This document shows positions 5,110 to 60,514 of a stretch of DNA of 64,000 bases, in pieces. The DNA comes from a phage, in NCBI GenBank assembly GCA_020773975.1, contig GCA_020773975.1_3638.1; one strand, written 5' to 3'. The first letter of the stretch is position 1. Each line of letters begins with the position of its first letter. Below the pieces are notes generated by a model that was not told the DNA's origin, searched no databases, and worked only from the letters and a program-made list of their open reading frames with translations. The position numbers and the translations under genes are program-made.

Positions 5110-5399
5110 AAAAGTGTGTCATCATGGTTCCTTTTCTATTATTGATGTTAATAGGGTGCACTTCACCACCTGAGAGAGTTGTTCCTGTTGCAAAAGAGAT
5201 CATAATAAGCGATATCTTAGCAAGACCACCCGCTGAGGCTATGATACCACCGAAAGAACCTGAAAAATTGCCAGGTGGTCTTAGTAATGCAGATGCTATC
5301 GAGGTGATTAAGAAAAACAACATTAAGGCTGCTGAAGATCGTATGAGATTAAGAACGTTACAGCAGTATGTGAAGACAATATTTTCTTCAGATAAGTAG
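5106..5399 (+). CDS. putative o-spanin (Rz1-like), proline-rich signal-peptide protein
   Basis: Signal peptide ending LIGC then Pro-rich mature region; immediately follows the i-spanin candidate. Confidence 0.45.
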   Translation: MKKCVIMVPFLLLMLIGCTSPPERVVPVAKEIIISDILARPPAEAMIPPKEPEKLPGGLSNADAIEVIKKNNIKAAEDRMRLRTLQQYVKTIFSSDK

Positions 5400-5407
5400 T
5401 TGACAAT

Positions 5408-5440
5408 GCCCTTATTTAATGATAAGGGCTTTATTTTTAT
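5408..5440 (+). terminator. rho-independent terminator
   Basis: GCCCTTAT...ATAAGGGC hairpin followed by T-run. Confidence 0.55.
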
Positions 5441-5494
5441 CGTTATTCGTGGTAAACTACCTTCTATGGTAGGAATAGAAAATATGGAGGTCTT

Positions 5495-6841
5495 TTGAGT
5501 AAAGTATTTGGACCTGCCAGTCCTAAACAAAAAATGATTTTGGAGAGTAAAGCCCAAATTCTAATAATTGGCGGGGCCGCCGGGTGTTTGTCTAAAGACC
5601 ACGAGGTGTTGACACCATCTGGCTGGATTAAGATATCAGAATGGTCAGGGCAGGACATTCTGCAATATGATAAAGCCACTGGGGAGGCTAAATTTATCCC
5701 TCCTTTAGAGTTTGTTAAACTCCCTTGCGACAAACTTACAAGAATAGAAGGTAATGGCATTTGTCAAGAGCTATCTGACGAACATACTGTGATTTATAAA
5801 CCAGACTATAAATCACAGCCAAGAACACTTTCTTTTTCTGAAGTGGCAGAAAGACATAACAACTCTGTTAAAAAAGGTTGGACAGGTAAGTTCATAACTA
5901 CATTTAACTATGATGGGCCTGGGATAGACATGACAGAAGGGGAATTAAGGCTTCAGGTTGCTGTCATGGCTGATGGGAGAGTTGTTAAAGAAGGGAAAGA
6001 TAATTATACACAGATGCGCTTTGCTAAAAAGCGTAAATATGACCGCTTAATCGAACTTTGTAAAAAGTTTGGATTAAGATATGAAGACAGAGGATCAAAA
6101 CCCAGTGAAAGATATACCACTGGGGAACAGTACGAGGTCATTGTATGGCCTAAATATCCTGATAAAAAATTTACAGAGAAATACTATCAGTGTTCAAATG
6201 AACAACTGGAGATAATACTTGATGAGATTTTTCATTGGGATGGTTCTTTTTGTAAGCCATATGGCGGTAAAACACATAACAGCTTTACAGGTAGATATTT
6301 TACTGCTCATAAGACGAACGCTGATTTTATTCAGTTTGTAGGATCTTCTCTTGGTTATAATACCACCATAAGCCATGACACAAGAAGTGGAAAGGACAGT
6401 TATACTGTTAATATTATGGCTAGAGGAAAAGGATTAAGGTCACTGGCTAATAAAGACAGAAAAGCTGAGTTTAAAGCGTTTACACCTACGGATGGGTTTA
6501 AATACTGCTTTGTAACACAAACAGGTTTCTTTGTTACCAGACTGGAAGATTGTGTGGTTGTCACTGGGAATAGTGGAAAATCATATCTCCTACAATTGAT
6601 GCCGCTTGCTTATGTCGATGACCCGCAGACAGCATGTATAATGTTTCGTAGGACAACACCTCAATTGACAGGTGCAGGTGGACTTTTTGATACAGCGAAA
6701 AGTATTTATTTGCAACTCGATAAGGAATGGAAGCCGAAGTTCAGGGAGAAAGCTCTGGAAGCAATTTTCCCATCTGGGGCAAAGGTGTTGTGGAGACACA
6801 TGGAGTATGAGAATAACAAATTAGATCATCAGGGTGAATAG
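5495..6841 (+). CDS. terL: terminase large subunit, N-terminal coding segment (P-loop ATPase) containing an in-frame intein
   Basis: TTG start after GGAGG RBS; Walker A split as IIGGAAG-[intein]-SGKSY; lies directly upstream of portal; ORF runs to a stop inside intron-like sequence, real exon end probably 6817-6829. Confidence 0.7.
   Translation: MSKVFGPASPKQKMILESKAQILIIGGAAGCLSKDHEVLTPSGWIKISEWSGQDILQYDKATGEAKFIPPLEFVKLPCDKLTRIEGNGICQELSDEHTVIYKPDYKSQPRTLSFSEVAERHNNSVKKGWTGKFITTFNYDGPGIDMTEGELRLQVAVMADGRVVKEGKDNYTQMRFAKKRKYDRLIELCKKFGLRYEDRGSKPSERYTTGEQYEVIVWPKYPDKKFTEKYYQCSNEQLEIILDEIFHWDGSFCKPYGGKTHNSFTGRYFTAHKTNADFIQFVGSSLGYNTTISHDTRSGKDSYTVNIMARGKGLRSLANKDRKAEFKAFTPTDGFKYCFVTQTGFFVTRLEDCVVVTGNSGKSYLLQLMPLAYVDDPQTACIMFRRTTPQLTGAGGLFDTAKSIYLQLDKEWKPKFREKALEAIFPSGAKVLWRHMEYENNKLDHQGE
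5585..6571 (+). mobile_element. intein (329 aa) with LAGLIDADG-type endonuclease motifs in the terminase P-loop
   Basis: Starts with Cys (CLSKDHEVLTPSGW), ends VVVTGN followed by Ser; internal LQVAVMADG and LDEIFHWDG motifs; removal restores GGAAGSGKS. Confidence 0.7.
6809..6817 (+). repeat. 9-bp direct repeat GAGAATAAC (copy 1) flanking the terminase intervening region
   Basis: Identical 9-mer at 8778-8786; joining the copies puts exon 1 and the C-terminal segment in frame (MEYENN-PDYLAF). Confidence 0.5.
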
Positions 6842-7537
6842 CTTGCCCTTCGTGCCTATAACGGTGGAACTCCCTATGGGAAAATACCGTGCCACAGAAT
6901 ATGGAAATATAAACTCTGGGTGTAACGACTATCTCCGATGAGTGTAGGAGAGTAGAATCACAAGCGATTGGTGATCCAAACGGCACGCCAAGGATGGAAG
7001 ATATAGTCTGTTCCACATGGAAACATGTGGCGGGTGTTTTAGCACACCGCCTCAGTGTAGCGAACTGAGGGGACAATAAGTTGCAATATACCTTTATAGG
7101 TTTCGATGAGGGTAGAACAGTGTGCTCTCTATAAACCCCTTTAATTGACGGGTAACTCTTTATACATATCACCACTAAGTAGGTATGGTAACATATTTAT
7201 GGTCAACGGTAATGACGTTGAGTATAGTAACAGTGTGAATGTTTAGACAATCCGCAGCGAAGCATCCCTACGGGATGAACGTTCAACGACTATCGCTTAC
7301 GGGCGTTAGGGCCAAGCGGTGAGGGAAACCTCCGGTTGATTATCAACCGCCGAAACAGGGGGGTGTGTAATAACACACAAGATATAGTCTGATCTGCATG
7401 GTGACATGCAGCAGCACGTAGTGGTGCGGGATAAGAGTAGCGATCTTATCTGAACAAAAACGACACAATTCACATGGTCACAGATAGATTATCTGATATC
7501 TCGTCTACGTTCAAACTCTAAATATCCGAGCAGGATG
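6830..7537 (+). mobile_element. group I intron-like intervening sequence(s) in terminase, no ORF
   Basis: Conserved core elements: P-like AATTGACGGG (7143), Q AATCCGCAGC (7250), R GTTCAACGACTATC (7282), S AAGATATAGTCTGATC (7379); a second R/S-like pair at about 6926 and 7003. Confidence 0.55.
7381..7430 (+). repeat. 50-nt intron core block (S element to P9 region), copy 1
   Basis: GATATAGTCTGATCTGCATGGTGACATGCAGCAGCACGTAGTGGTGCGGG; second copy at 8674-8723 with 2 mismatches. Confidence 0.7.
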
Positions 7538-7773
7538 GTTATCTCTTGTAACCCTGATCCAGATCATAAGATCAAGGAGTTGATTTCTTGGTATTTAGAT
7601 GATGAGGGATATCCTATACCTGAACGCGATGGGGTGATTAGATGGTTTATAAGACGTGACGGGGAGTTTATCTGGGGTGAATCAGAGCAAGAATTAATTG
7701 AAAAGTATTGGGATGGCAAGGATGAGAAAAGAAAGCCTAAACCACTTTCATTTTCCTTCATTTCCGCAACCAT
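7538..7773 (+). CDS. possible internal terminase exon (or co-converted exon fragment), about 79 codons
   Basis: Open frame between intron-like regions (VISCNPDPDHKIKELISWYLDDEG...FISAT); LISWYLDDE resembles a Walker B strand; begins right after an intron-terminal ATG and ends at CCAT before a GTGG guide-like sequence; frame relation to downstream segment unresolved. Confidence 0.3.
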
Positions 7774-7902
7774 TAAAAGAATAGTGGCTTCATGCAGTAA
7801 TGCATGTCGAATAACTTCGTTAATTGCTGGGAAACCCTTTGTATAAGGGCAATCAGCAGCTATAATTACTTTTCCGAAACTGTAGTAGGGAGAATGTTTG
7901 AG

Positions 7903-8589
7903 ATGAAAAATTTAGGATTTTTAGGGTATTCCCATTATTGTGCGACGTATGATGGAAGAATTTATAGTTTGTATTCCCACAAATTTTTACATCCTAATGT
8001 CCATAAGAAAACTGGCTATGCAATGTTAACGTTGTGTGAGGATGGTAAAAAGTTTCAAGTTCTTGTCCATAGGGTTATTGCTTTTGCTTTTGTCGAGAAT
8101 GATAGCCCTGATACAAAAACTCAAGTGAACCATTTAGATGGAAACAAACTTAATAACGCAGCGTGGAATCTTGAGTGGACAACTGCAAAGGAAAACACAC
8201 ATCACGCACATGAAATAGGGCTTAAGAAGTCTTATGTAAACAGTTACAGGCCTCTTGATGATAACACTGCCCTTGAGATATGCAGATTACTTGAGCAGGG
8301 TGCTAGAGTAAAGGATATCAGTGAGATGTTTGGTATTGGGCAGACTGTGGTTAGTAGTATCAAAGCTGGGAGAGTCTACCCAGACATTTCTAAAGAGTTT
8401 AATTTCAGGATGGTTCCTTCTTCCAACAGAATTAGTGAATCCAAAGTTATAGGGATATGTGAAGATCTGAGAGACGGTATCCTAAGCATTAATAAGATAT
8501 CTAAAAAATGGGGTGTTAGTTTTAATCTTGTTAGAAGAATAAAAGATAGAAAAACTTACATCTATATCTCAAACAACTATGAATGGTAA
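7903..8589 (+). CDS. intron-encoded HNH homing endonuclease
   Basis: ATG 9 nt after GGGAGA (alternative ATG at 7894); N-terminal GYSHY..YDGRIYS NUMOD-like motif, HNH signature VNHLDGNKLNN...NLEW...ENTHHAH, C-terminal helix-turn-helix-like repeats. Confidence 0.65.
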   Translation: MKNLGFLGYSHYCATYDGRIYSLYSHKFLHPNVHKKTGYAMLTLCEDGKKFQVLVHRVIAFAFVENDSPDTKTQVNHLDGNKLNNAAWNLEWTTAKENTHHAHEIGLKKSYVNSYRPLDDNTALEICRLLEQGARVKDISEMFGIGQTVVSSIKAGRVYPDISKEFNFRMVPSSNRISESKVIGICEDLRDGILSINKISKKWGVSFNLVRRIKDRKTYIYISNNYEW

Positions 8590-12840: not shown

Positions 12841-13263
12841 ATGGCTAATCCAATTCAAGGTTTCTACTCTGACATTGTACTGGGTAAAGTTGATTCTTCT
12901 GACCAAGGCTATAGCTTCAAGGAAATGGAGATTCAGTACGCAGCAGGTATGAAAGCAGGTATGATCGTTAAAGAAGATGGTACTCTAGCTGCATCTGGTG
13001 ATGCTGCGCAGGCTTATGGTGTTCTGGTTGACCATGACCTTGTACCTGCATACGAACCTGTTACCCCGTTCAAAGTAGGAACTAAATATAATTTTGTTGT
13101 TGCTGTTCGTGGCCTTACTCTGAATAAGTCCAAGATTGTGTTCTCTGATGGTTCTACTGGAATTGACGAGACTGCTATTAAAGCTCTTGAGGCAAGAGGT
13201 CTGAAAATCACCGATAAATATTACGATGGTTCTGAAGATATTAAAGTAACGGCTATCAGCTAA
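12841..13263 (+). CDS. putative capsid accessory or decoration protein (140 aa)
   Basis: Strong RBS, host-optimised codon usage similar to capsid gene, position between scaffold and capsid. Confidence 0.35.
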   Translation: MANPIQGFYSDIVLGKVDSSDQGYSFKEMEIQYAAGMKAGMIVKEDGTLAASGDAAQAYGVLVDHDLVPAYEPVTPFKVGTKYNFVVAVRGLTLNKSKIVFSDGSTGIDETAIKALEARGLKITDKYYDGSEDIKVTAIS

Positions 13264-13286: not shown

Positions 13287-14300
13287 ATGGCAGCAGTACA
13301 GACTAACGACTTTCAAATCGTAAACCTTGGCGCAGCACTGGAACTTGTTCCACGTCAGTATCGCCTGATTACCAACATGGATCTGTTCACCGCTTACCAT
13401 GGTGAAACCACAATTGCTCGTGTTGAGCGTGTTGACGAAATTGTTGCGGATATTCCTGCACGTCGTCGTGGTGGAGAACGTAACTATGTGGGTAGTGAAA
13501 AAGCCCAAATCAAGAACTTCAACATTCCGTTCTTCCCTCTGGATCGTCAGATCACTGCGGCAGATGTTCAGAACTTCCGTAAATACTTCACTACGGACGC
13601 TCCGAGAACTGTTGAAGACGTAGTTGCTCGCGTAGTTAAGCGTATTCGCGTTTCTCATGAACAACTGAAAGAAAAAGCAATGGTTCAGGCAATCATGGGT
13701 AAATCATGGTCTCCACAAGATCCGACCGCACAGTACAACTACTTTACTGAGTGGGGAGTTACCCAGCATACTGCCAATATCAACTTCACAGATGTTGCAG
13801 TTGACCCGTCTGACCTGATTGAGAAAGACGCTCGTGCATACATTATCGACAATGCAGGTGATAACGGCAATAACTACAATATCATTGTTCTGGCTTCTCG
13901 TAAATGGTTCTCTGCTCTGATCGCCCATCCGCTGATCATGAACGCTTACCAGTATTACTCTTCTACCCAAGAGCCGCTGCGTCGTCGTCTGGGTATGGGT
14001 TCTGAGAATGCCAACAACCGTATGTTTGTTCATAAGAACGTAACCTACATTGAAGACATCTCTGGATATATCCCAGATGGTGAGGCGTACATCCTGCCGC
14101 AAGGTATTGATGATATGTTCCAGATCCATTACGCTCCGGCAGACGATGTTCGTGAAGCGAACACTGTAGCTGAAGAACTGTACCTGTGGTACAAATCTTC
14201 TGCATATCTGCGTGAAGAGAAAGTTGAATCTGAGACTTCCTTCTTGACGGTTAACACCCGTCCTGAACTGGTTGTACGTTCTACAGGTACTTTCGCATAA
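13287..14300 (+). CDS. putative major capsid protein (337 aa)
   Basis: Strong RBS AAGGAGA, highly biased codon usage (CGT, CTG, GGT) typical of abundant virion proteins, followed by a strong terminator; synteny. Confidence 0.6.
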   Translation: MAAVQTNDFQIVNLGAALELVPRQYRLITNMDLFTAYHGETTIARVERVDEIVADIPARRRGGERNYVGSEKAQIKNFNIPFFPLDRQITAADVQNFRKYFTTDAPRTVEDVVARVVKRIRVSHEQLKEKAMVQAIMGKSWSPQDPTAQYNYFTEWGVTQHTANINFTDVAVDPSDLIEKDARAYIIDNAGDNGNNYNIIVLASRKWFSALIAHPLIMNAYQYYSSTQEPLRRRLGMGSENANNRMFVHKNVTYIEDISGYIPDGEAYILPQGIDDMFQIHYAPADDVREANTVAEELYLWYKSSAYLREEKVESETSFLTVNTRPELVVRSTGTFA

Positions 14301-14355: not shown

Positions 14356-14431
14356 CACATTCTGACTTTAATAATAACCACTTATCCTGTATTGTAAAGT
14401 GGTTTTTACTAAGGAATAAAAAGGAGAATTT

Positions 14432-14938
14432 ATGGCGAATCAAAATTATCGTATTTTCCCTAACAAAGTTGAGCTGTTTAAATTTTTCGGAGCATATGCA
14501 CCACAATTGAATGCAGCAGTATCTGCAAGACTGCCTTTGAACGGTTTGTGTGTGGGGACACAACACAAGGCATTCCGAAATACGGTTGAATTTTTCACTG
14601 CTCTTGCTGAGATGTCTGGTCTGGATGTTGATGCGCAGCATTCTACCATTCGTATGGGTTCTTATATCGTATTCTTTAATAAAGATATTCCTAATCCAAA
14701 CAGTATGGGTAAGATAGTTGATGCTAAGATTGTTACAGCACAAGAGAAGAAAGATGGAGAGCCACTTTCAGTTGAAGAGATTTTGGCTGAAGCAGAGAAG
14801 TTGAATGACGAAACTGATAAGAAAGGTAGTAAGGATAAACTGGCTGAGTTTGCACTCTCTAAAGGTGTTACATTGGCTAAGAATAAATCTTTTGAGAAGA
14901 TGATTGCTGATTTAAAATCTGAATTAGAAGTATCCTAA
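14432..14938 (+). CDS. hypothetical virion protein (168 aa)
   Basis: ORF track; RBS AAGGAGA; no recognisable motif. Confidence 0.4.
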   Translation: MANQNYRIFPNKVELFKFFGAYAPQLNAAVSARLPLNGLCVGTQHKAFRNTVEFFTALAEMSGLDVDAQHSTIRMGSYIVFFNKDIPNPNSMGKIVDAKIVTAQEKKDGEPLSVEEILAEAEKLNDETDKKGSKDKLAEFALSKGVTLAKNKSFEKMIADLKSELEVS

Positions 14939-14956
14939 TTTTTAAGGAGTTAAGCC

Positions 14957-16234
14957 ATGACAGCAACTACAGGTGTTGGCGGGTTAATTTATGGTCGTGC
15001 ATTAGTTGACCAGAAAACAGGAAAGAAAATAAATTTTGATGAGTTGGGTGGTGGGAATATCCCAGAAGATATAACAGAACTTATTGCATCTAAAGCCCCA
15101 ATAGAAAGCCCTTCATTTACAGGGAAACCTCAAGCACCAACACCATCGGATGATGCGGTAGGGAAGGAAATAACTAATGTAGAGTATGTTAAAAATCTAA
15201 TTGCAAAACTAGTTAACTCAGCACCTGAGACATTGGACACTCTCAATGAGTTGGCAAAAGCATTAGGTGATGACCCCAATTTTGCGACAACGGTCACTAA
15301 TGAACTGGCAGGTAAACAGCCGCTGAACGACGTGCTGACGGCAATCAGTGAACTGAAGCAACGGGCAGATAATCTTCTGTGCTTTAATCAGGACGGGAAT
15401 GCTTCACTGTCCCCGCTGTCAGAAAAAGCCCGGTCACTGCTGGCACTGGACACGACAGAAGCCATGCGCACGGAGCTTGAACTGAAGGCTGCCGCGACAA
15501 TGGATGTTCAGAGCGATATCCGTGACCGCACAGAAGGGCGTCTGGCCCTGCCGGGAGCATATGGTTACGGGCGTCTGTTCGCGTACGATGAGCACCTTTA
15601 CGTGAACGACGAACCCCAGGGCAGGAACTGGATAAAGAGTGCCACGCCGGGACGGTATGCGCTTACTTTTCGCGATGTCTCCTGGCTGCTTCCCGGCGTG
15701 AAAACATTTTCCGGCATTATTGATGTACTCCAGTCACCATTCACCATCAGTGATGATGAGCGTGGTGCCAAAAACATGACACTGGTCTGTTATAACCAGC
15801 GTGGTGATGGTGAAAACAGCATTCATATAGTCAGCTACAGTGTTTCCGGTGATGAGCTGAGCTTCACATCGTCCACTGTTGTCTCAGACGGTCTTTCACT
15901 GGCCCGGTTGATGTCGGTGACGACAGGAGAGGGGCCGTCATCCTGGTACAGGTATCCGGATGTTGGCGCGCCAGTTCTGGCTGTGTATCAGGGAACAGCG
16001 GCCGGAGATAACTCAGTCAAAATAGGCCTGGGAGATACGGTGCCGGGGTCACGACTTGGTCCGGTGAGTATTACCTGTACATTCAGTCAGTCTGGCATAT
16101 CGGAGTCCACACCGTCTGTAAACACAGGAGGTGCAGGTGCATACAGTTTTCCGGGGCGTTATCAGGCGCTGTCCGGGTGGAAGCAGGGAGGGTCAGCCCG
16201 TGGCTGTATCTGCCTGTTCGTGCGCATTGAGTAA
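14957..16234 (+). CDS. tail fibre protein, mosaic (phage-like N-terminus, GC-rich C-terminal receptor-binding region)
   Basis: Conserved fibre motif SPSFTGKPQAPTPSDD...LAKALGDDPNFATT; composition switches to GC-rich at about 15300. Confidence 0.6.
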   Translation: MTATTGVGGLIYGRALVDQKTGKKINFDELGGGNIPEDITELIASKAPIESPSFTGKPQAPTPSDDAVGKEITNVEYVKNLIAKLVNSAPETLDTLNELAKALGDDPNFATTVTNELAGKQPLNDVLTAISELKQRADNLLCFNQDGNASLSPLSEKARSLLALDTTEAMRTELELKAAATMDVQSDIRDRTEGRLALPGAYGYGRLFAYDEHLYVNDEPQGRNWIKSATPGRYALTFRDVSWLLPGVKTFSGIIDVLQSPFTISDDERGAKNMTLVCYNQRGDGENSIHIVSYSVSGDELSFTSSTVVSDGLSLARLMSVTTGEGPSSWYRYPDVGAPVLAVYQGTAAGDNSVKIGLGDTVPGSRLGPVSITCTFSQSGISESTPSVNTGGAGAYSFPGRYQALSGWKQGGSARGCICLFVRIE

Positions 16235-16249
16235 CGGGGTAAATAAGGC

Positions 16250-16825
16250 ATGAAAATCAGAGCGGTAAAAGGCATCAGAAACGCACATTATCTTGAAAAT
16301 GGTGCGGTTGACTGCGAGGTGTTATTTGAAGGCGAAACGGAATTCGTTCCGTATACCGCCATGCGTGACGACAGCGCCCGGACAGGGCGGTATATCTGGC
16401 GGGAGCTGCAAAGCGGCAAATGGGGTGAAGTCGCGCCGTTTACCGTCACGCCTGAACGTATCGCTGCGGCAAAAGCAGCCAAAAAACAGGAAATCGAGGC
16501 ATGGCAAACAGAGCAGGAAGCGCTGGCGTTCACGTTCGAATGGAACGGTCGAACGTGGAATGGAGGTGCGTCCTCAGTATCCCGTCTCACGCCAGCGGTG
16601 ATGACGGCAAAGTCAGAGAGTCGCGAGGAGACAGAGTGGAGTGATGCGGAAAACAGGCGGGTGAAGCTGTCGTTGCAGAAACTGGAAGAGTTGCTTACAG
16701 CGATGGTGCAGGAGCAGGTTATTCGCAACGATGAGATTTATCGCCGGCAGCGGGAGATGAAGGATGAACTGAATAACCTGGAGGATTTAAGCTCAATCAG
16801 AGCGATGACGATTAGCAGCAGTTAG
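16250..16825 (+). CDS. tail fibre assembly protein (Tfa-like chaperone)
   Basis: GC-rich; lambda Tfa-like segments (FTFEWNGRTWNGG, C-terminal DEIYRRQREMKDELNNLEDLSSI); directly downstream of the fibre gene. Confidence 0.55.
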   Translation: MKIRAVKGIRNAHYLENGAVDCEVLFEGETEFVPYTAMRDDSARTGRYIWRELQSGKWGEVAPFTVTPERIAAAKAAKKQEIEAWQTEQEALAFTFEWNGRTWNGGASSVSRLTPAVMTAKSESREETEWSDAENRRVKLSLQKLEELLTAMVQEQVIRNDEIYRRQREMKDELNNLEDLSSIRAMTISSS

Positions 16826-17192
16826 CGGTCAATTAGCCCAGAAAAAAAAACGCGAAGTTACAAAAGAGTGGAGAAAACGGGAAGAAAGCTCTACAACTAT
16901 TGTTTCCTATAATGGTGCAAGGTATGATGTTGATAATGCAACTCTTGATCGTATTTATCCAGTATTATTAGCACAAAAAGCATCCTCGGCTAGGCAAGCT
17001 GTGATTTGGAGAGATGTTGATAACAGACCTGTTGAGATGAGTAGCTCTGAATTTGAAAATCTTGTTGTAGCTATGTCTTCCGAGTTGGCAACCAAGAATG
17101 ATACAATATACACTAGGCAACGAGAGATGAAAGACCAAGTGCTTTCAGCCTCTACAGTTGAGGAATTGCAAAGTATAACAATTGGGTGGTAG
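16826..17192 (+). pseudogene. remnant 3' portion of an AT-rich tail fibre assembly gene (displaced tfa)
   Basis: Frame open from about 16809 with no start; translation is homologous to the C-terminal half of 16250..16825 (DTIYTRQREMKDQVL vs DEIYRRQREMKDELN); ORF track shows only 17001..17192. Confidence 0.45.
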
Positions 17193-17494
17193 CTACGGAT
17201 TATAAGGATAAAGTTGTCAATGCTGAAGTTATACTTCCAGATGGGCATAGTATTGGAGGATCAGGACTCCCAAACCAATCTTTTAAATTATACACAGAAG
17301 ACACCGCGACCATAAAACTTTCAGGTAATGGTGAAAAAGCAACACCACTTAAAGGTGTTGTTGTGGTGGCAGAAGATGAAAATAATGCTCTCCAAGCTGG
17401 AGATAATGGGTTAGCTGGAGTAATACCCGAAGCAGGTGCTGATGAAGCCTCACATGAATTTAATTATGTTGTTCAATATAGTTACACAAGTTAA
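17186..17494 (+). CDS. hypothetical protein (102 aa)
   Basis: ORF track. Confidence 0.3.
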   Translation: MVATDYKDKVVNAEVILPDGHSIGGSGLPNQSFKLYTEDTATIKLSGNGEKATPLKGVVVVAEDENNALQAGDNGLAGVIPEAGADEASHEFNYVVQYSYTS

Positions 17495-17505
17495 AAGGAG
17501 AAAAT

Positions 17506-17763
17506 ATGGCAACAAATGGCGTAGCAGGTAAAGTATATGCATCAAGCCTTATTGATATAAAAACTGGAAAATCTGTGAAAATCGAAGATATTGTTGCTGG
17601 AGGCTCAGATAGCTATGTTCTTCCAGCGGCTACGGAATCAGTATTAGGAGGTGTTAAGAAAGCACAAACACAAGCAGATTCTGTGGCTTCAGATGTCTCT
17701 ACGTTGGTCAACGATTTTAATGCTTTGCTTGCCAAATTGAAAGCCGCTGGTATTATGTCGTGA
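17506..17763 (+). CDS. small protein sharing the N-terminal motif of the tail fibre (85 aa)
   Basis: MATNGVAGKVYASSLIDIKTGKSVKIEDIVAGG aligns with the N-terminus of 14957..16234; RBS AAGGAGA. Confidence 0.4.
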   Translation: MATNGVAGKVYASSLIDIKTGKSVKIEDIVAGGSDSYVLPAATESVLGGVKKAQTQADSVASDVSTLVNDFNALLAKLKAAGIMS

Positions 17764-17765
17764 TA

Positions 17766-17792
17766 AAAAGACCCTTCGGGGTCTTTTATTTT
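17766..17792. terminator. bidirectional rho-independent terminator
   Basis: AGACCC-TTCG-GGGTCT hairpin flanked by A-run and T-run; sits between convergent genes. Confidence 0.65.
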
Positions 17793-18190
17793 AGGATTCC
17801 TTGCACTCCTTTATCCAAGTTTGCATTAATATACACTTCCCGCCCATCTTTGTAAAAAGTGCAGATGTATTTTCCAGTGTAAGATTGTTTTCCTGAGATA
17901 ATTGCGACATCATCAAAATATTGATATGCTTCCGCCTGTTCTGCTATCCTACCCTCGAAACCTGATGACACAACAATAACGCCTGGTTTAAATGCTTCTC
18001 TAAATCTCTTATCGCAAGATAATTGTACAATACGGCTAATTGCCTCATCTTTTTCTTCTGGCGACAACCAACTTGCCTCGACAGATTTATAATCATTAAT
18101 ATCTGGGTTCTTTTTCACATATTGGAAAGTTCCCGCTGCAATAACAGCACAGACGCACAGACCAATTGTAATTTTTAAAATATTTTTCAT
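17786..18190 (-). CDS. secreted (signal-peptide) protein of unknown function, moron-like
   Basis: Only minus-strand gene in the structural module; N-terminal signal peptide MKNILKITIGLCVCAVIAAG; GGAGG RBS; own promoter and terminator. Confidence 0.55.
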   Translation of the reverse strand: MKNILKITIGLCVCAVIAAGTFQYVKKNPDINDYKSVEASWLSPEEKDEAISRIVQLSCDKRFREAFKPGVIVVSSGFEGRIAEQAEAYQYFDDVAIISGKQSYTGKYICTFYKDGREVYINANLDKGVQGILK

Positions 18191-18317: not shown

Positions 18318-18836
18318 ATGACAGACCAAGAAATTGTTGATTACATCAGGCTCCTGCTTGGGTCAATATCCCCAGAGGCACTACCTGATGAAGTTATCAT
18401 GGCATTCCTTGAGATGGAGAAAAAAAGAGCAAACTGGCCTAACCCATCATCCACGCCTTGCGACATGTGGAAAGTGGTCTATAACACAATGGTGGCTGTA
18501 TTAAGATGGTTAATTCTTCAAGAGATAAATTCTGGCGAGGCATCCATCACAGAAAGATTGGAAAAGATAGGTGATGAGACAATACAGGTGAAAGGCGGCT
18601 CATCATACCAGAACTGGAAAGATTTTCTGGACTGGCTACTGCAAAACCCTGATTACGTCAATAGTTGTCTGAATGGTGTCTCTGGTTTGATTATTGTAGG
18701 TGGTGTGCGGCAGGATGAGTTTTGGCGTGTCAAGAACAATCCAAACTCCAGAAGCCCGTTTGATGTTTCTGGTATAGTTCCTCAAACAGGAGTCCCCGGT
18801 ATTCCTCGGAGATACCCAAAACACAGGTATTATTGA
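18318..18836 (+). CDS. hypothetical protein, possible head-tail connector component (172 aa)
   Basis: ORF track; position between fibre block and sheath; upstream ATGACA/TAATAT promoter-like sequence. Confidence 0.35.
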   Translation: MTDQEIVDYIRLLLGSISPEALPDEVIMAFLEMEKKRANWPNPSSTPCDMWKVVYNTMVAVLRWLILQEINSGEASITERLEKIGDETIQVKGGSSYQNWKDFLDWLLQNPDYVNSCLNGVSGLIIVGGVRQDEFWRVKNNPNSRSPFDVSGIVPQTGVPGIPRRYPKHRYY

Positions 18837-57517: not shown

Positions 57518-58530
57518 CAGTCCTCCTTAGATTCTTGTAGATAAATCTCTTCAAGAATTTTACCCTGTACACCAATGACAATAATATCTGGTGCACCTGC
57601 TGGTTTTGGTGTTCCTGTCAGAACTTCATAACGACAGCAACGGCATTTTTTCTGGTTATAGTCATAAGGGACACTGACAATATCTGCCGGATCCACAGAT
57701 ACTTCTACAAGTGCCCTTGAAGTCTTCTCAAAGGTAGCGGCATAGTCAATAGATGCAACATGCAAACCTTGGCTACATGTTCTATTGGGATTATCCTCAA
57801 CCATATTACGTGGCATGGAAATCACTTGCCCTTTATAATTAGGAACTTTACCTGTATGACAATCTCGTGGGCCATCTACAGTTATCTTAATTTTCTTGTA
57901 TGCCTTAATATTTCCGTTTTCAAGGATCTCAAGATCATTATGTTTTACAAAATCATAAAGCATTTTAACAGAAGCATACGACGGGTTGTGTAGCAACTTC
58001 TGCATGAATTTGACATATCGTTCGTCAAAGCAATCATTCTCAATATCTTTAATGATTCGTTTAGCAATACTGCTTTCCTGTTTTTGACCGTGCCAATATA
58101 AAACGTTATCTATCAATACTAAATTATCACCAAAATCAATGGTCTTTTTCTTTTCTGCTTCTTTCTCTTCCAAAATACGTTGTACAGCAGCATCTATTCC
58201 TCCTGTCCAAAGGATAACACCAACTTCTTTGAAGATGGGGCTGCTACTATTTAGAGTATATTGTTCACCATTTAACAAAGTGATATGGATATTGTCTTGG
58301 GTAACAAGGACAATTGGTTGTGCAAGAGTATGCACTGGCTTCATAATACCTACAGGATCTTCCTTAGCCTTTTTGGTTGTCGGCATTCCTTTTTTGGGTG
58401 CAACTGTCCAGCGTTTAAGAACATTTAGACCACGATCAACAACCACCATATTATTTTTCTTAGCGTATTCACGAGCTTCACGACGTGACATGAATAAAGG
58501 ATTACTCACCTTTTTCTCCTTTGCTGTCAA
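57517..58530 (-). CDS. putative rIIB-like protein
   Basis: Assigned by adjacency to and co-orientation with the rIIA-like gene, and size (337 aa); no independent motif. Confidence 0.35.
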   Translation of the reverse strand: MTAKEKKVSNPLFMSRREAREYAKKNNMVVVDRGLNVLKRWTVAPKKGMPTTKKAKEDPVGIMKPVHTLAQPIVLVTQDNIHITLLNGEQYTLNSSSPIFKEVGVILWTGGIDAAVQRILEEKEAEKKKTIDFGDNLVLIDNVLYWHGQKQESSIAKRIIKDIENDCFDERYVKFMQKLLHNPSYASVKMLYDFVKHNDLEILENGNIKAYKKIKITVDGPRDCHTGKVPNYKGQVISMPRNMVEDNPNRTCSQGLHVASIDYAATFEKTSRALVEVSVDPADIVSVPYDYNQKKCRCCRYEVLTGTPKPAGAPDIIVIGVQGKILEEIYLQESKED

Positions 58531-60514
58531 TAAATTTACGATACTCTAGCATCTCTGGAGTATTGAAATGCCTAATATTAATGTATTTTAACAATGGGTA
58601 ACGATCTTTCTTAATCTGTAGTAGCTTTTTCCCAATTCTCTTCTTGGCCTCTATCATCCTTAATGCTTTCTCACGACTATCTTCGTAGCCAGGAACTGAC
58701 CAATAACTGGGTATGTTTACCTTCATCTCCCATTTTGGGAAACTAGCTACCATCACACCAAAATAGCTAAGCTCTTTAACAATGTTATGATACTCATGAT
58801 CTTTCCCCACTTCTTGATATAAATGATATTCAAGAAGGTTAGTTTTTGCAAGAGCATGAATATCCTCCTCAGTTATAACCCGTGCCTCATCTGGCAGCCA
58901 ACTTGATCTGTTTAAAGGCACAATATATAACTTACCAGCTACACCAAGATTCTTAAGAAATGTTGGTGGTTGCTTTCTCCAAGATGTTCTAAGATTTGTT
59001 CTAAGATTGGAAACGTATCCTAACGGGCATAATCCTTTCACCTGCCCACCCCAGTAGACCATAGCCGCCTCAATATCTTCAAACTGAGCACGGGAAATGC
59101 GGGTTACATCTACGGAGCCATCTTGGTTGATTATCCAAACTTTATGACCCGGTTCGTAATAACCATAGCCACCATACTTTTTATCTGCTTTTTGCACTGG
59201 TCGTTTTTCAAGTTCAGATAACTTGAAAATCATCCCTTCAAAGAATTTATCACTGTATAAGGACAGAGCGTAATCAGCATCGGTTATAAATGATCTCTTA
59301 CCAAACTTCTCTGCGAGCCAGTTACATTTAGAGCGCACATACTTGTGATCATCATTGTAAACCAGTGGATGACCATTCATCAACTCTGCGTATGAATATC
59401 TCTCATCCTTACCACGGCGTGATCCTTCGCCACCATATGTTTCACAGTAATCTATGTAAGAACCATCAGTATAATTCTTGAACTTATTTGCAATAAAAGC
59501 AGCACCGTACTTTGTAGCGAAGTACCCGCCAATAAACTTCATATGATCAAGAACTGCTTTTAACGTTGGCAGATCGCTTAATTCTTTTGTGATTTCTTCT
59601 CCGCGAAGTCGGATAGCTTTCGTCACAAAACTTTCAAGTTTATCACGAAATCCCCCGTCATTCTTTCCTTCTACTGTCCACTCCCTGCCAGGATCTACAT
59701 TACAATCCCCAATAGGGATAGATACCGTCATCATAGGCAGTTCTTTGCGAGTAGAGAGATAATCAGAGAGATATGGTTGTTGCCCCATGATGACAACACT
59801 ATCAGCGTTTCTTGAAATGCTACTATACATCTCAAGAACCCAGCCAGTCTCCTCATCCTCATACCGATACTGAACAGGATAAGTGCGATCTTCAATCTGA
59901 GTTTTAACAAAAGGATCGTTAATAATATATGGGAATTTGGCATAACGAAGGCATTTTACAATAGCCTGTCGATAAGCTCCTGTTTCCCAAGTGTTTACGT
60001 TAAATTTAACCTCTACACCATTCTCCTCTGTTGTTTCACAACAGAATAAAGGTACAACCTCTGGTATTCCGCTGTTTTTGTGAACAGAGTATGTTGTTTT
60101 CACTCCATCTTTAACAGAAACAACTGTGAACATATCTGTTACTGCAAGAGGCGCTTTTGACCCAATACCTTTCGCGCCAATCAGATCATTACTGTTTCTT
60201 TTTGTGGACTTACCAATCATCATGAATGTACGTGTTACCATCTCATGATCCATACCTAACCCTGTATCCTTAACAGAATACCAAGGTTCCAAGTCTGTTG
60301 GTGAGTGGATGATGATGGGTTTATCAGAACACCCTGCCTCTGTATGAGCATCTACAGCGTTGAAGAGAGGCTCTCGTACTGCTGCCAAAGGTTTATCTTT
60401 ATAAATTCCATCGATAAGAATACTGAAAGTCTCAGGATTCATTGCAATTGATGCTTGGTATCTTTCTACGTTCCCAGTTACCTGAACTTTGTTGTCAGAT
60501 CTTTGAATAATCAT
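58502..60514 (-). CDS. rIIA-like protein with N-terminal GHKL-type ATPase motifs
   Basis: N box LFNAVDAHTEAG, G1 box VKDTGLGM, G2 GAKGIGSKAPLAV; 670 aa. Confidence 0.55.
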   Translation of the reverse strand: MIIQRSDNKVQVTGNVERYQASIAMNPETFSILIDGIYKDKPLAAVREPLFNAVDAHTEAGCSDKPIIIHSPTDLEPWYSVKDTGLGMDHEMVTRTFMMIGKSTKRNSNDLIGAKGIGSKAPLAVTDMFTVVSVKDGVKTTYSVHKNSGIPEVVPLFCCETTEENGVEVKFNVNTWETGAYRQAIVKCLRYAKFPYIINDPFVKTQIEDRTYPVQYRYEDEETGWVLEMYSSISRNADSVVIMGQQPYLSDYLSTRKELPMMTVSIPIGDCNVDPGREWTVEGKNDGGFRDKLESFVTKAIRLRGEEITKELSDLPTLKAVLDHMKFIGGYFATKYGAAFIANKFKNYTDGSYIDYCETYGGEGSRRGKDERYSYAELMNGHPLVYNDDHKYVRSKCNWLAEKFGKRSFITDADYALSLYSDKFFEGMIFKLSELEKRPVQKADKKYGGYGYYEPGHKVWIINQDGSVDVTRISRAQFEDIEAAMVYWGGQVKGLCPLGYVSNLRTNLRTSWRKQPPTFLKNLGVAGKLYIVPLNRSSWLPDEARVITEEDIHALAKTNLLEYHLYQEVGKDHEYHNIVKELSYFGVMVASFPKWEMKVNIPSYWSVPGYEDSREKALRMIEAKKRIGKKLLQIKKDRYPLLKYINIRHFNTPEMLEYRKFIDSKGEKGE

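Follow-up and report, generated by a model that had tools for sequence, protein, structure and literature searches.

An intact short head-fibre gene in an rV5-like Escherichia coli phage, and the N-terminal anchor it shares with a putative long head fibre

The closest described counterparts of the gene considered here, an 85-amino-acid (aa) open reading frame (ORF) at 17506-17763 (+) of a 64,000-nucleotide stretch of phage DNA (contig GCA_020773975.1_3638.1 of GenBank assembly GCA_020773975.1; hereafter the window), are fibres mounted on phage heads. In crAss001, gp21 is a capsid-bound homotrimer, whose residues 1-38 occupy a pocket in the hexon and whose C-terminal domain points outward (PMC10172136). 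The 99-aa decoration protein gp45 of the Shigella podophage B2 is likewise a capsid-bound homotrimer, seated on the quasi-sixfold (hexamer-centre) axes (PMC11654681; PDB 9D82). The trimeric gp8.5 of phi29 is dispensable for capsid stability and infectivity, and has been linked to ordered interaction with the host cell wall; SPP1 gp12 is an adhesion spike, trimeric and collagen-like, that stands at the centres of hexamers (PMC7602432). Closer to the window in phylogenetic terms, the capsid of phiTE (triangulation number T=13) has been solved: DEC trimers fill its three-fold sites, and the protein phiTE_217 has been assigned to a 'Pagoda' density at hexamer centres by mass-spectrometry abundance, without having been modelled (PMC11972413).

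The window is part of the genome of an rV5-like myophage (Vequintavirinae) of E. coli, and in the region of interest the closest records are those of Escherichia phages TH18, 18-1-2, 19-1-2, 24-2-1, and Av-05 (DNA identity about 87-88%). The 85-aa protein resembles crAss001 gp21 (97 aa) in plan, as the latter combines an N-terminal capsid plug of ~38 residues with a GG hinge and a YVLPAAT...GGVKK tip. Another hexon class of crAss001 bears a further head fibre of a different kind, gp29, but the anchors of the two crAss001 fibres are unrelated and their oligomeric states differ, whereas here two genes share a homologous anchor. B2 gp45 is similarly a small stand-alone protein, with a homologous C-terminal module (family profile, E = 8.4e-15) and the geometry that we propose below; it comes, however, from a member of the Schitoviridae with a T=9 capsid, and the match covers the C-terminal two-thirds only, the capsid-binding part not being detectably homologous. 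Homology with phi29 gp8.5 extends over the last ~60 residues of that protein (E = 9e-10; Pfam 3e-17), which at ~280 aa also has a beta-tulip base, located at quasi-three-fold sites, and a long helix-turn-helix supercoiled shaft, both absent from the 85-aa protein. We propose that the gene encodes a short head fibre, that its N-terminal anchor is a capsid-hexamer plug, and that a 425-aa fibre encoded nearby is also borne on the head, a reading to which we assign a probability of roughly 0.72.

A conserved gene with a gp8.5-type tip

The gene runs from ATG to TGA, and its translation is that given in an earlier reading of the DNA, made without database searches (hereafter the sequence-only reading). 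The latter had credited the ORF with its own ribosome-binding site and terminator, and both were found. A Shine-Dalgarno sequence, AAGGAG (17495-17500, +), can be read directly 5 nucleotides 5' of the start codon, and an intrinsic terminator, comprising a hairpin and T-tract (17766-17792), lies beyond the stop codon. Its 9-bp GC-cored stem (17766-17787, AAAAGACCC-TTCG-GGGTCTTTT, then ATTTT) was found by direct folding (-14.8 kcal/mol, z = -3.05, equalled by 0 of 200 shuffles), and went unreported in a consensus terminator scan. As the hairpin sits between the 85-aa gene and a convergent gene at 17786-18190 (-), it can terminate both.

By tblastn, the 85-aa protein was found in 147 phage records, with at least 80% query coverage in 65 of them; the genes concerned encode 83-99 aa, are usually annotated 'head fiber protein', and extend across several genera of the Vequintavirinae (for example Av-05 gp80, PVP-SE1 gp67, and the orthologues in SSE121, KB57, Mydo, and Hena1). 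The identical protein is encoded on at least 23 public contigs, always by an 85-aa gene, and in eight of eight listed loci this gene comes after a fibre of 413-416 aa, a DUF4376 protein of 189-190 aa, and a third fibre of 529-651 aa. A protein in a public collection is 100% identical over all 85 aa and carries the UniRef name 'head fiber protein'. The ratio of nonsynonymous to synonymous substitution rates (dN/dS) is 0.16 relative to TH18 and 0.15 relative to Av-05, indicative of purifying selection.

These data refute the sequence-only suggestion that the ORF might be a remnant of a second fibre gene. Alignment with the fibre genes of related phages, which had been put forward as a check on that suggestion, showed the gene to be full length by comparison with every orthologue, and none of the relatives examined has a longer gene at its position. 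Were the ORF the N-terminal stump of a second long fibre, cut by a deletion or an assembly error, it would make sense that only the N-terminus is common to the 85-aa protein and the long fibre, and that genuine debris lies directly upstream (16862-17192, the scar of a chaperone gene, and 17186-17494, a 102-aa ORF derived by deletion). This explanation is scarcely credible, however, when the same gene occurs on at least 23 independent contigs, when orthologues of 83-99 aa are found in several genera under selection of the strength given above (dN/dS 0.15-0.16), and when the C-terminus of the protein corresponds to the end of both the Pfam profile and the solved homologues. The real remnants at this locus are, judging from collinearity with relatives, the segments at 16862-17192 and 17186-17494.

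Identification as a head fibre comes from the tip (aa 37-85, YVLPAATESVLGGVKK ... DFNALLAKLKAAGIMS; 17614-17760, +). The protein matches Pfam PF11133 (Phage_head_fibr) with 63.4 bits (cut-off 24.6; E = 3e-17), residues 19-85 corresponding to profile positions 212-277 of 277, and also matches several PHROG head-fibre families. Among PDB sequences it matches phi29 gp8.5 (6QVK/3QC7), crAss001 gp21 (7QOF), and B2 gp45 (9D82) at E = 1e-9 to 9e-9, improving to 8e-15 to 3e-10 for the same three proteins with a family profile. The alignment covers the last ~60 residues of each, and the end of the 85-aa protein coincides with those of PF11133 (277/277), phi29 gp8.5 (280/281), and B2 gp45 (99/99). Compared with the full gp8.5 architecture, only the last 66 PF11133 positions are matched in the 85 residues; by this alignment the protein is a sharer of the tip module and not a gp8.5 orthologue, having neither base nor shaft. 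It does display the plan of the small fibres with gp8.5-type tips, in which a short N-terminal segment and a hinge precede an LPAAT..GGVK..helix tip.

A monomer model of the protein, built with AlphaFold2 (AF2) from a 76-sequence alignment, has a mean predicted local distance difference test (pLDDT) score of 75 and a predicted template-modelling (pTM) score of 0.34. The C-terminal helix (residues 64-80) is modelled with a pLDDT of 93-95, and a short beta-hairpin (strands 14-16 and 23-25) with about 80. The top Foldseek matches of this model in the PDB were 3QC7/6QVK (probability 0.95, E = 0.05, template-modelling score 0.31), and nothing there matched the N-terminal anchor; the weakness of the match is explicable in that the monomer model of what would be an intertwined trimer makes a poor query. 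No part of the protein is better conserved across very distant phages than the tip, with L78 invariant and 14 more columns at least 90% conserved among the 76 sequences. In those phages the PF11133 tip stands behind quite different N-termini, a variety compatible with a universal tip combined with a capsid adaptor particular to the lineage.

On these comparative grounds (PF11133 and PHROG matches, orthologues, identical copies, and dN/dS) the 85-aa gene is intact and conserved, and encodes a short head fibre of an rV5-like E. coli phage; with a Shine-Dalgarno sequence and terminator of its own it is expressed as a separate unit, and its tip is homologous to those of solved capsid-bound trimers. 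As such it is ordinary: it belongs to a known family of small head fibres with gp8.5-type tips, and is already annotated accordingly in public records.

An N-terminal anchor shared by two fibre genes

The first 33 residues of the protein (MATNGVAGKVYASSLIDIKTGKSVKIEDIVAGG; 17506-17604, +), with their predicted beta-hairpin, form a module that recurs at the N-terminus of the 425-aa protein encoded at 14957-16234 (+), where it (aa 1-33; 14957-15055) is succeeded by a side-tail-fibre (Stf)-like shaft and an exchangeable tip. The homology of the two N-termini, which the sequence-only reading had already pointed out, is borne out by BLASTP (E = 6e-7, 13 of 33 residues identical) and by a profile constructed from the N-termini of relatives, which among 1052 six-frame segments of the window matched just these two ORFs (the 425-aa protein at 6.6e-21, and the 85-aa protein at 3e-19). 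Both ORFs are matched even when the profile is restricted to four distant short fibres (4e-11, 1.3e-9). A further, weak match at 59033-59218 (+) (STGNAGYIYGAILVD, E = 0.007) is antisense within a 670-aa gene (58502-60514, -) at a place without an ORF, and was judged to be due to chance.

The two anchors of the window are 50.5% identical in nucleotide sequence, with 8 of 33 third codon positions identical, which excludes a recent duplication of, or gene conversion between, the two N-termini; at sequence level the two copies are old paralogues, descended from an old duplication. Long-type anchors are 62-73% identical between genera, whereas a long-type and a short-type anchor from one genome are only 38% identical (over ~28 positions), which hints that the anchor subtypes are specialized for different sites, as opposed to simply competing for one.

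The module is strictly N-terminal, and has many distal partners. An exhaustive scan of 1.84 billion representative proteins with the anchor profile gave only 24 clusters (59-587 aa); the match begins within the first 8 residues in all 24, and at residue 1 in 18. A 46-aa anchor alignment, compared with a word-indexed database of 5.8 billion, returned only eight short fragments. The parts that stand behind the anchor include the PF11133 tip, collagen repeats, the knob of the Sf6 tail needle (PF16532), P2/Mu-like fibre repeats, tail-fibre tips, and mosaic fusions with the C-terminus of the third fibre. These partner types are known trimer-formers, so that the anchor is most simply seen as a trimerizing attachment module. 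Against PDB sequences the anchor profile found nothing better than E = 0.64, which is chance level, and it scored ~0 bits on crAss001 gp21, there being no sequence similarity to the gp21 anchor; homology with the capsid-binding N-termini of the small solved fibres was thus not found, and the anchor is lineage-specific.

The same genomic slot holds different anchor-bearing proteins in other Vequintavirinae: a 210-aa collagen protein in Klebsiella phage P8734, a 379-aa collagen 'tail fiber' in Escherichia phage AV124, a 183-aa protein in LNA4, and the 858-aa exopolysaccharide (EPS) depolymerase gp219 in Erwinia phage Hena1 (leave-out profile, E = 2e-10). The anchor-bearing protein adjoins a short fibre of PF11133 type in all four phages. 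Two further proteins (P0137 and P0141) also combine anchor and collagen; together with those of P8734 and AV124 they are analogous to SPP1 gp12, with no homology claimed, unlike the 85-aa protein, which is free of collagen repeats. In Hena1 gp219 (5330-7906 of locus L005) the anchor leads into a LPVATADTLGGVK motif, and the gene, which belongs to the head block, directly follows that of the short fibre, an arrangement that suggests a capsid-mounted depolymerase.

Natural mosaics add to this variety. One protein of 77 aa (P0007) joins the anchor to a chaperone C-terminus, another of 122 aa (P0124) to the C-terminus of the third fibre; in a third, of 587 aa (P0126), the long fibre is fused to the distal half of the third fibre, and in a fourth, of 200 aa (P0144), the canonical anchor precedes the Pagoda domain of phiTE. 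From such fusions the slot in the head locus appears to be a recombination hotspot. Among the open-access papers searched, none was found on the shared anchor, or on a cassette in the head locus that brings together modules of tail-fibre-like, knob, collagen, and depolymerase type.

Proposed attachment to the capsid

We envisage the 85-aa protein as a small, probably trimeric capsid appendage, in which the anchor (residues 1-33) is connected by a glycine-rich hinge to the tip (37-85), and plugs into the centre of hexamers of the major capsid protein. The latter, the presumed docking partner, is encoded at 13287-14300 (+; Pfam Phage_cap_E, 2e-43) and is 58% identical to the major capsid protein of phiTE. 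Since the tip of the short fibre is homologous to the outward part of solved capsid fibres, the 33-residue N-terminus alone is left to bind the particle. Placement at the hexamer centre is then suggested by the location of the genes and by the phiTE Pagoda. In the window, and in Av-05, TH18, P8734, AV124, Hena1, LNA4, and phiTE, the anchor carriers sit between the genes for the major capsid and Inh-like proteins and that for head completion (adaptor). The baseplate wedge and tail-fibre genes, at 29.3-38.7 kb of the window, are about 15 kb from the anchor genes, and a profile scan of the window found no anchor in the baseplate-linked tail fibres at 31.4-38.7 kb.

The gene for phiTE_217 occupies the same slot, and in the N-terminus of its product (MAAIGGTSLGLVTGYAIMDQETGQVKTISELFEGG) the anchor recurs in diverged form. 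With a leave-out profile, phiTE_217 is the sole match in 23 kb of phiTE (E = 0.003), and hhalign pairs the canonical and phiTE_217-type anchors over 32 columns with a probability of 94.4% (E = 8.8e-8). The 200-aa mosaic described above links the canonical anchor to the C-terminal domain of phiTE_217, and anchors of the phiTE type also carry collagen spikes resembling those that stand behind canonical anchors. PhiTE_217 is like the 85-aa protein in phage subfamily, locus, and anchor ancestry; it is unlike it in its other distal domain, of 164 aa, and in lacking the PF11133 module. The asymmetry of the Pagoda density would fit a trimer placed on a quasi-sixfold site.

The 425-aa protein would, on the same reasoning, combine an anchor with a lambdoid side-tail-fibre-like shaft, and with an exchangeable receptor-binding tip that has its own DUF4376 chaperone. 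Over its length it matches PHROG tail-fibre shaft and tip families, and databases label it and its relatives tail fibres. Docking of the shared N-terminus on the tail, neck, or baseplate, which would make the 425-aa protein a tail fibre in the true sense and the 85-aa protein a small whisker bound to tail or neck, would accommodate these labels, as well as the relationship of the 425-aa tip and its chaperone to prophage tail-fibre genes, and the unplaced 'third putative fiber' near the phiTE baseplate (PMC11972413). The name 'tail fibre' is nonetheless a database-style label and not an observation. The gene is situated two genes 3' of the major capsid gene, within the head block and not in a baseplate module, and it is the members of the latter that lack the anchor. 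As the three solved tip homologues are all bound to capsids, with only the N-terminal 33 residues remaining for attachment, and as the family link to phiTE_217 points to the hexamer centre, we regard tail docking as improbable. The 425-aa protein is probably a long fibre of the head, whose receptor-binding tip came, with its chaperone, by horizontal exchange.

Both fibres would then be carried by the head and, if the capsid has T=13 symmetry like that of phiTE, would share up to 120 hexamer sites or partition them between themselves. A T=13 shell has 120 hexamers in two classes, so that two fibres must either compete for sites or divide them. The sequence-only reading had offered, as its other suggestion, a small protein that competes for the attachment site of the fibre. 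Its notion of a shared site is the part best supported, while the 85-aa protein is a complete small fibre and not a mere blocker, and the site is most likely on the capsid and not the tail. A related possibility is that the short protein acts mainly as a regulator of occupancy, capping anchor sites and thereby limiting or patterning the long fibres, with little function for its tip. The homologous anchors, the common direction of transcription ahead of one strong terminator, and the stronger-looking Shine-Dalgarno sequence of the short gene are all compatible with such a role. We consider it unlikely, if somewhat less so than attachment to the tail, as the invariant L78 and the 14 further columns conserved at 90% or more argue that the tip itself is selected, the short fibre is accompanied in some relatives by quite different partners, such as the Hena1 depolymerase, and the anchor subtypes stay distinct across genera.

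Several points weigh against a short fibre plugged into capsid hexamers beside a long one. With neither a PDB homologue of the anchor nor similarity to that of gp21, docking rests on analogy and synteny. Gp8.5 of phi29 is attached at quasi-three-fold sites, by a base domain of another kind (PMC7602432). At single-sequence level the anchor similarity of phiTE_217 is weak (12 bits), and the Pagoda assignment is itself indirect, depending on mass-spectrometry abundance for an unmodelled protein (PMC11972413). The AF2 monomer is only moderately confident and its Foldseek match weak, and the 425-aa protein, being tail-fibre-like over ~390 residues, could sit elsewhere on the virion.

As head fibres, both proteins would promote reversible adhesion to cell surfaces and not DNA delivery, raising the rate of encounter with the host. 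Such a role is likely by analogy with phi29 gp8.5, Hoc, pb10, and SPP1 gp12 (PMC7602432); stabilization of the capsid seems less likely on the same comparison. More broadly, we would give even odds to the proposition that the N-terminus of ~33 residues is a portable capsid-hexamer plug, which displays interchangeable receptor-binding modules on rV5-like heads (a tail-fibre tip with its chaperone, Sf6-type knobs, collagen spikes, and the EPS depolymerase of Hena1) at up to ~120 copies per particle, with the phiTE Pagoda as one member, and with short and long fibres dividing the two hexamer classes of a T=13 shell.

The 85-aa gene alone changes nothing, and it is the neighbourhood that may matter, with one anchor, varied distal parts, and one recombination-prone slot in the head block. 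If capsid docking holds, Vequintavirinae genes now annotated as tail fibres or depolymerases would encode capsid-displayed adhesins, in a subfamily that includes candidates for therapy and biocontrol (Av-05, relatives of PVP-SE1, and Hena1). Host-range prediction and the engineering of receptor-binding proteins would be affected, a swappable scaffold of natural origin would be at hand for displaying proteins in high copy on a T=13 head, and the unmodelled hexamer-centre density of phiTE would gain a sequence-based identity.

Rearrangement and neighbouring genes

Segments between 14400 and 17453 were defined by blastn against TH18 and Av-05. The stretch 14400-15339 is collinear with TH18, the alignment to Av-05 beginning at 14939. 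It is followed by a replaced cassette (15340-16861), which contains the fibre tip and the DUF4376 fibre-assembly chaperone of the swapped-in tip (16250-16825, +; Pfam DUF4376 4e-12, phrog_1141 5.6e-76); within it, 15970-16820 has 78% DNA identity to tail-fibre-end and DUF4376 genes of E. coli prophage origin. An exact look-up of the resulting 425-aa variant in the public collection found no copy. Collinearity with TH18 and Av-05 resumes at 16862 and extends to 17417. This segment takes in the initial ~75 codons of the third fibre gene and, before them, the C-terminal scar of a former DUF4376 chaperone (16862-17192, +), in which a 63-aa ORF (17001-17192) corresponds to the final third of DUF4376/phrog_1141.

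Between 17417 and 17453, ~1.5 kb of TH18/Av-05 sequence is deleted. The product is a 102-aa in-frame deletion derivative (17186-17494, +) of the third fibre gene, which encodes 529-651 aa in relatives; it consists of the N-terminal ~75 aa of that fibre joined to the C-terminal ~25 aa. Where relatives have an ATG this ORF reads Thr, and only a GTG is left, overlapping the preceding scar, so the ORF is probably a non-functional or minimal stub.

Upstream of the fibre genes, a head decoration protein is encoded at 12841-13263 (+; phrog_2680, 8.7e-48), with the same PHROG family label as the head decoration protein of W70. All relatives keep, 3' of the capsid gene, a counterpart of the 168-aa Inh-like protein (14432-14938, +); PF26097 (Phage_Inh_N) is present in it on related contigs, and there is a weak match between its C-terminal part and a PHROG of prohead-protease inhibitors. 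On the other side of the 85-aa gene, the convergent gene that shares its terminator (17786-18190, -) encodes a 134-aa protein of phrog_11434, labelled 'membrane protein' in the moron category. This inserted gene separates the head-fibre gene from the one for head completion, and its TH18 orthologue, called 'adenosine deaminase', looks misannotated. By gene order, the head-completion/adaptor gene begins at 18318 (+) and is followed by the neck and sheath genes.

The N-terminus of the 102-aa ORF matches that of phiTE_215 (BLASTP, E = 1e-8). The large third-fibre proteins of the locus have a second conserved module at their N-terminus, M-DYKDKVV..V.LPD...GGSG...TEDT..L.G.G...PL, which is found in the window at 17186-17410 (+), in the collagen-rich, 1099-aa phiTE_215 (locus L007, 4386-4600), and in Av05_0078 (locus L001, 4022-4250).

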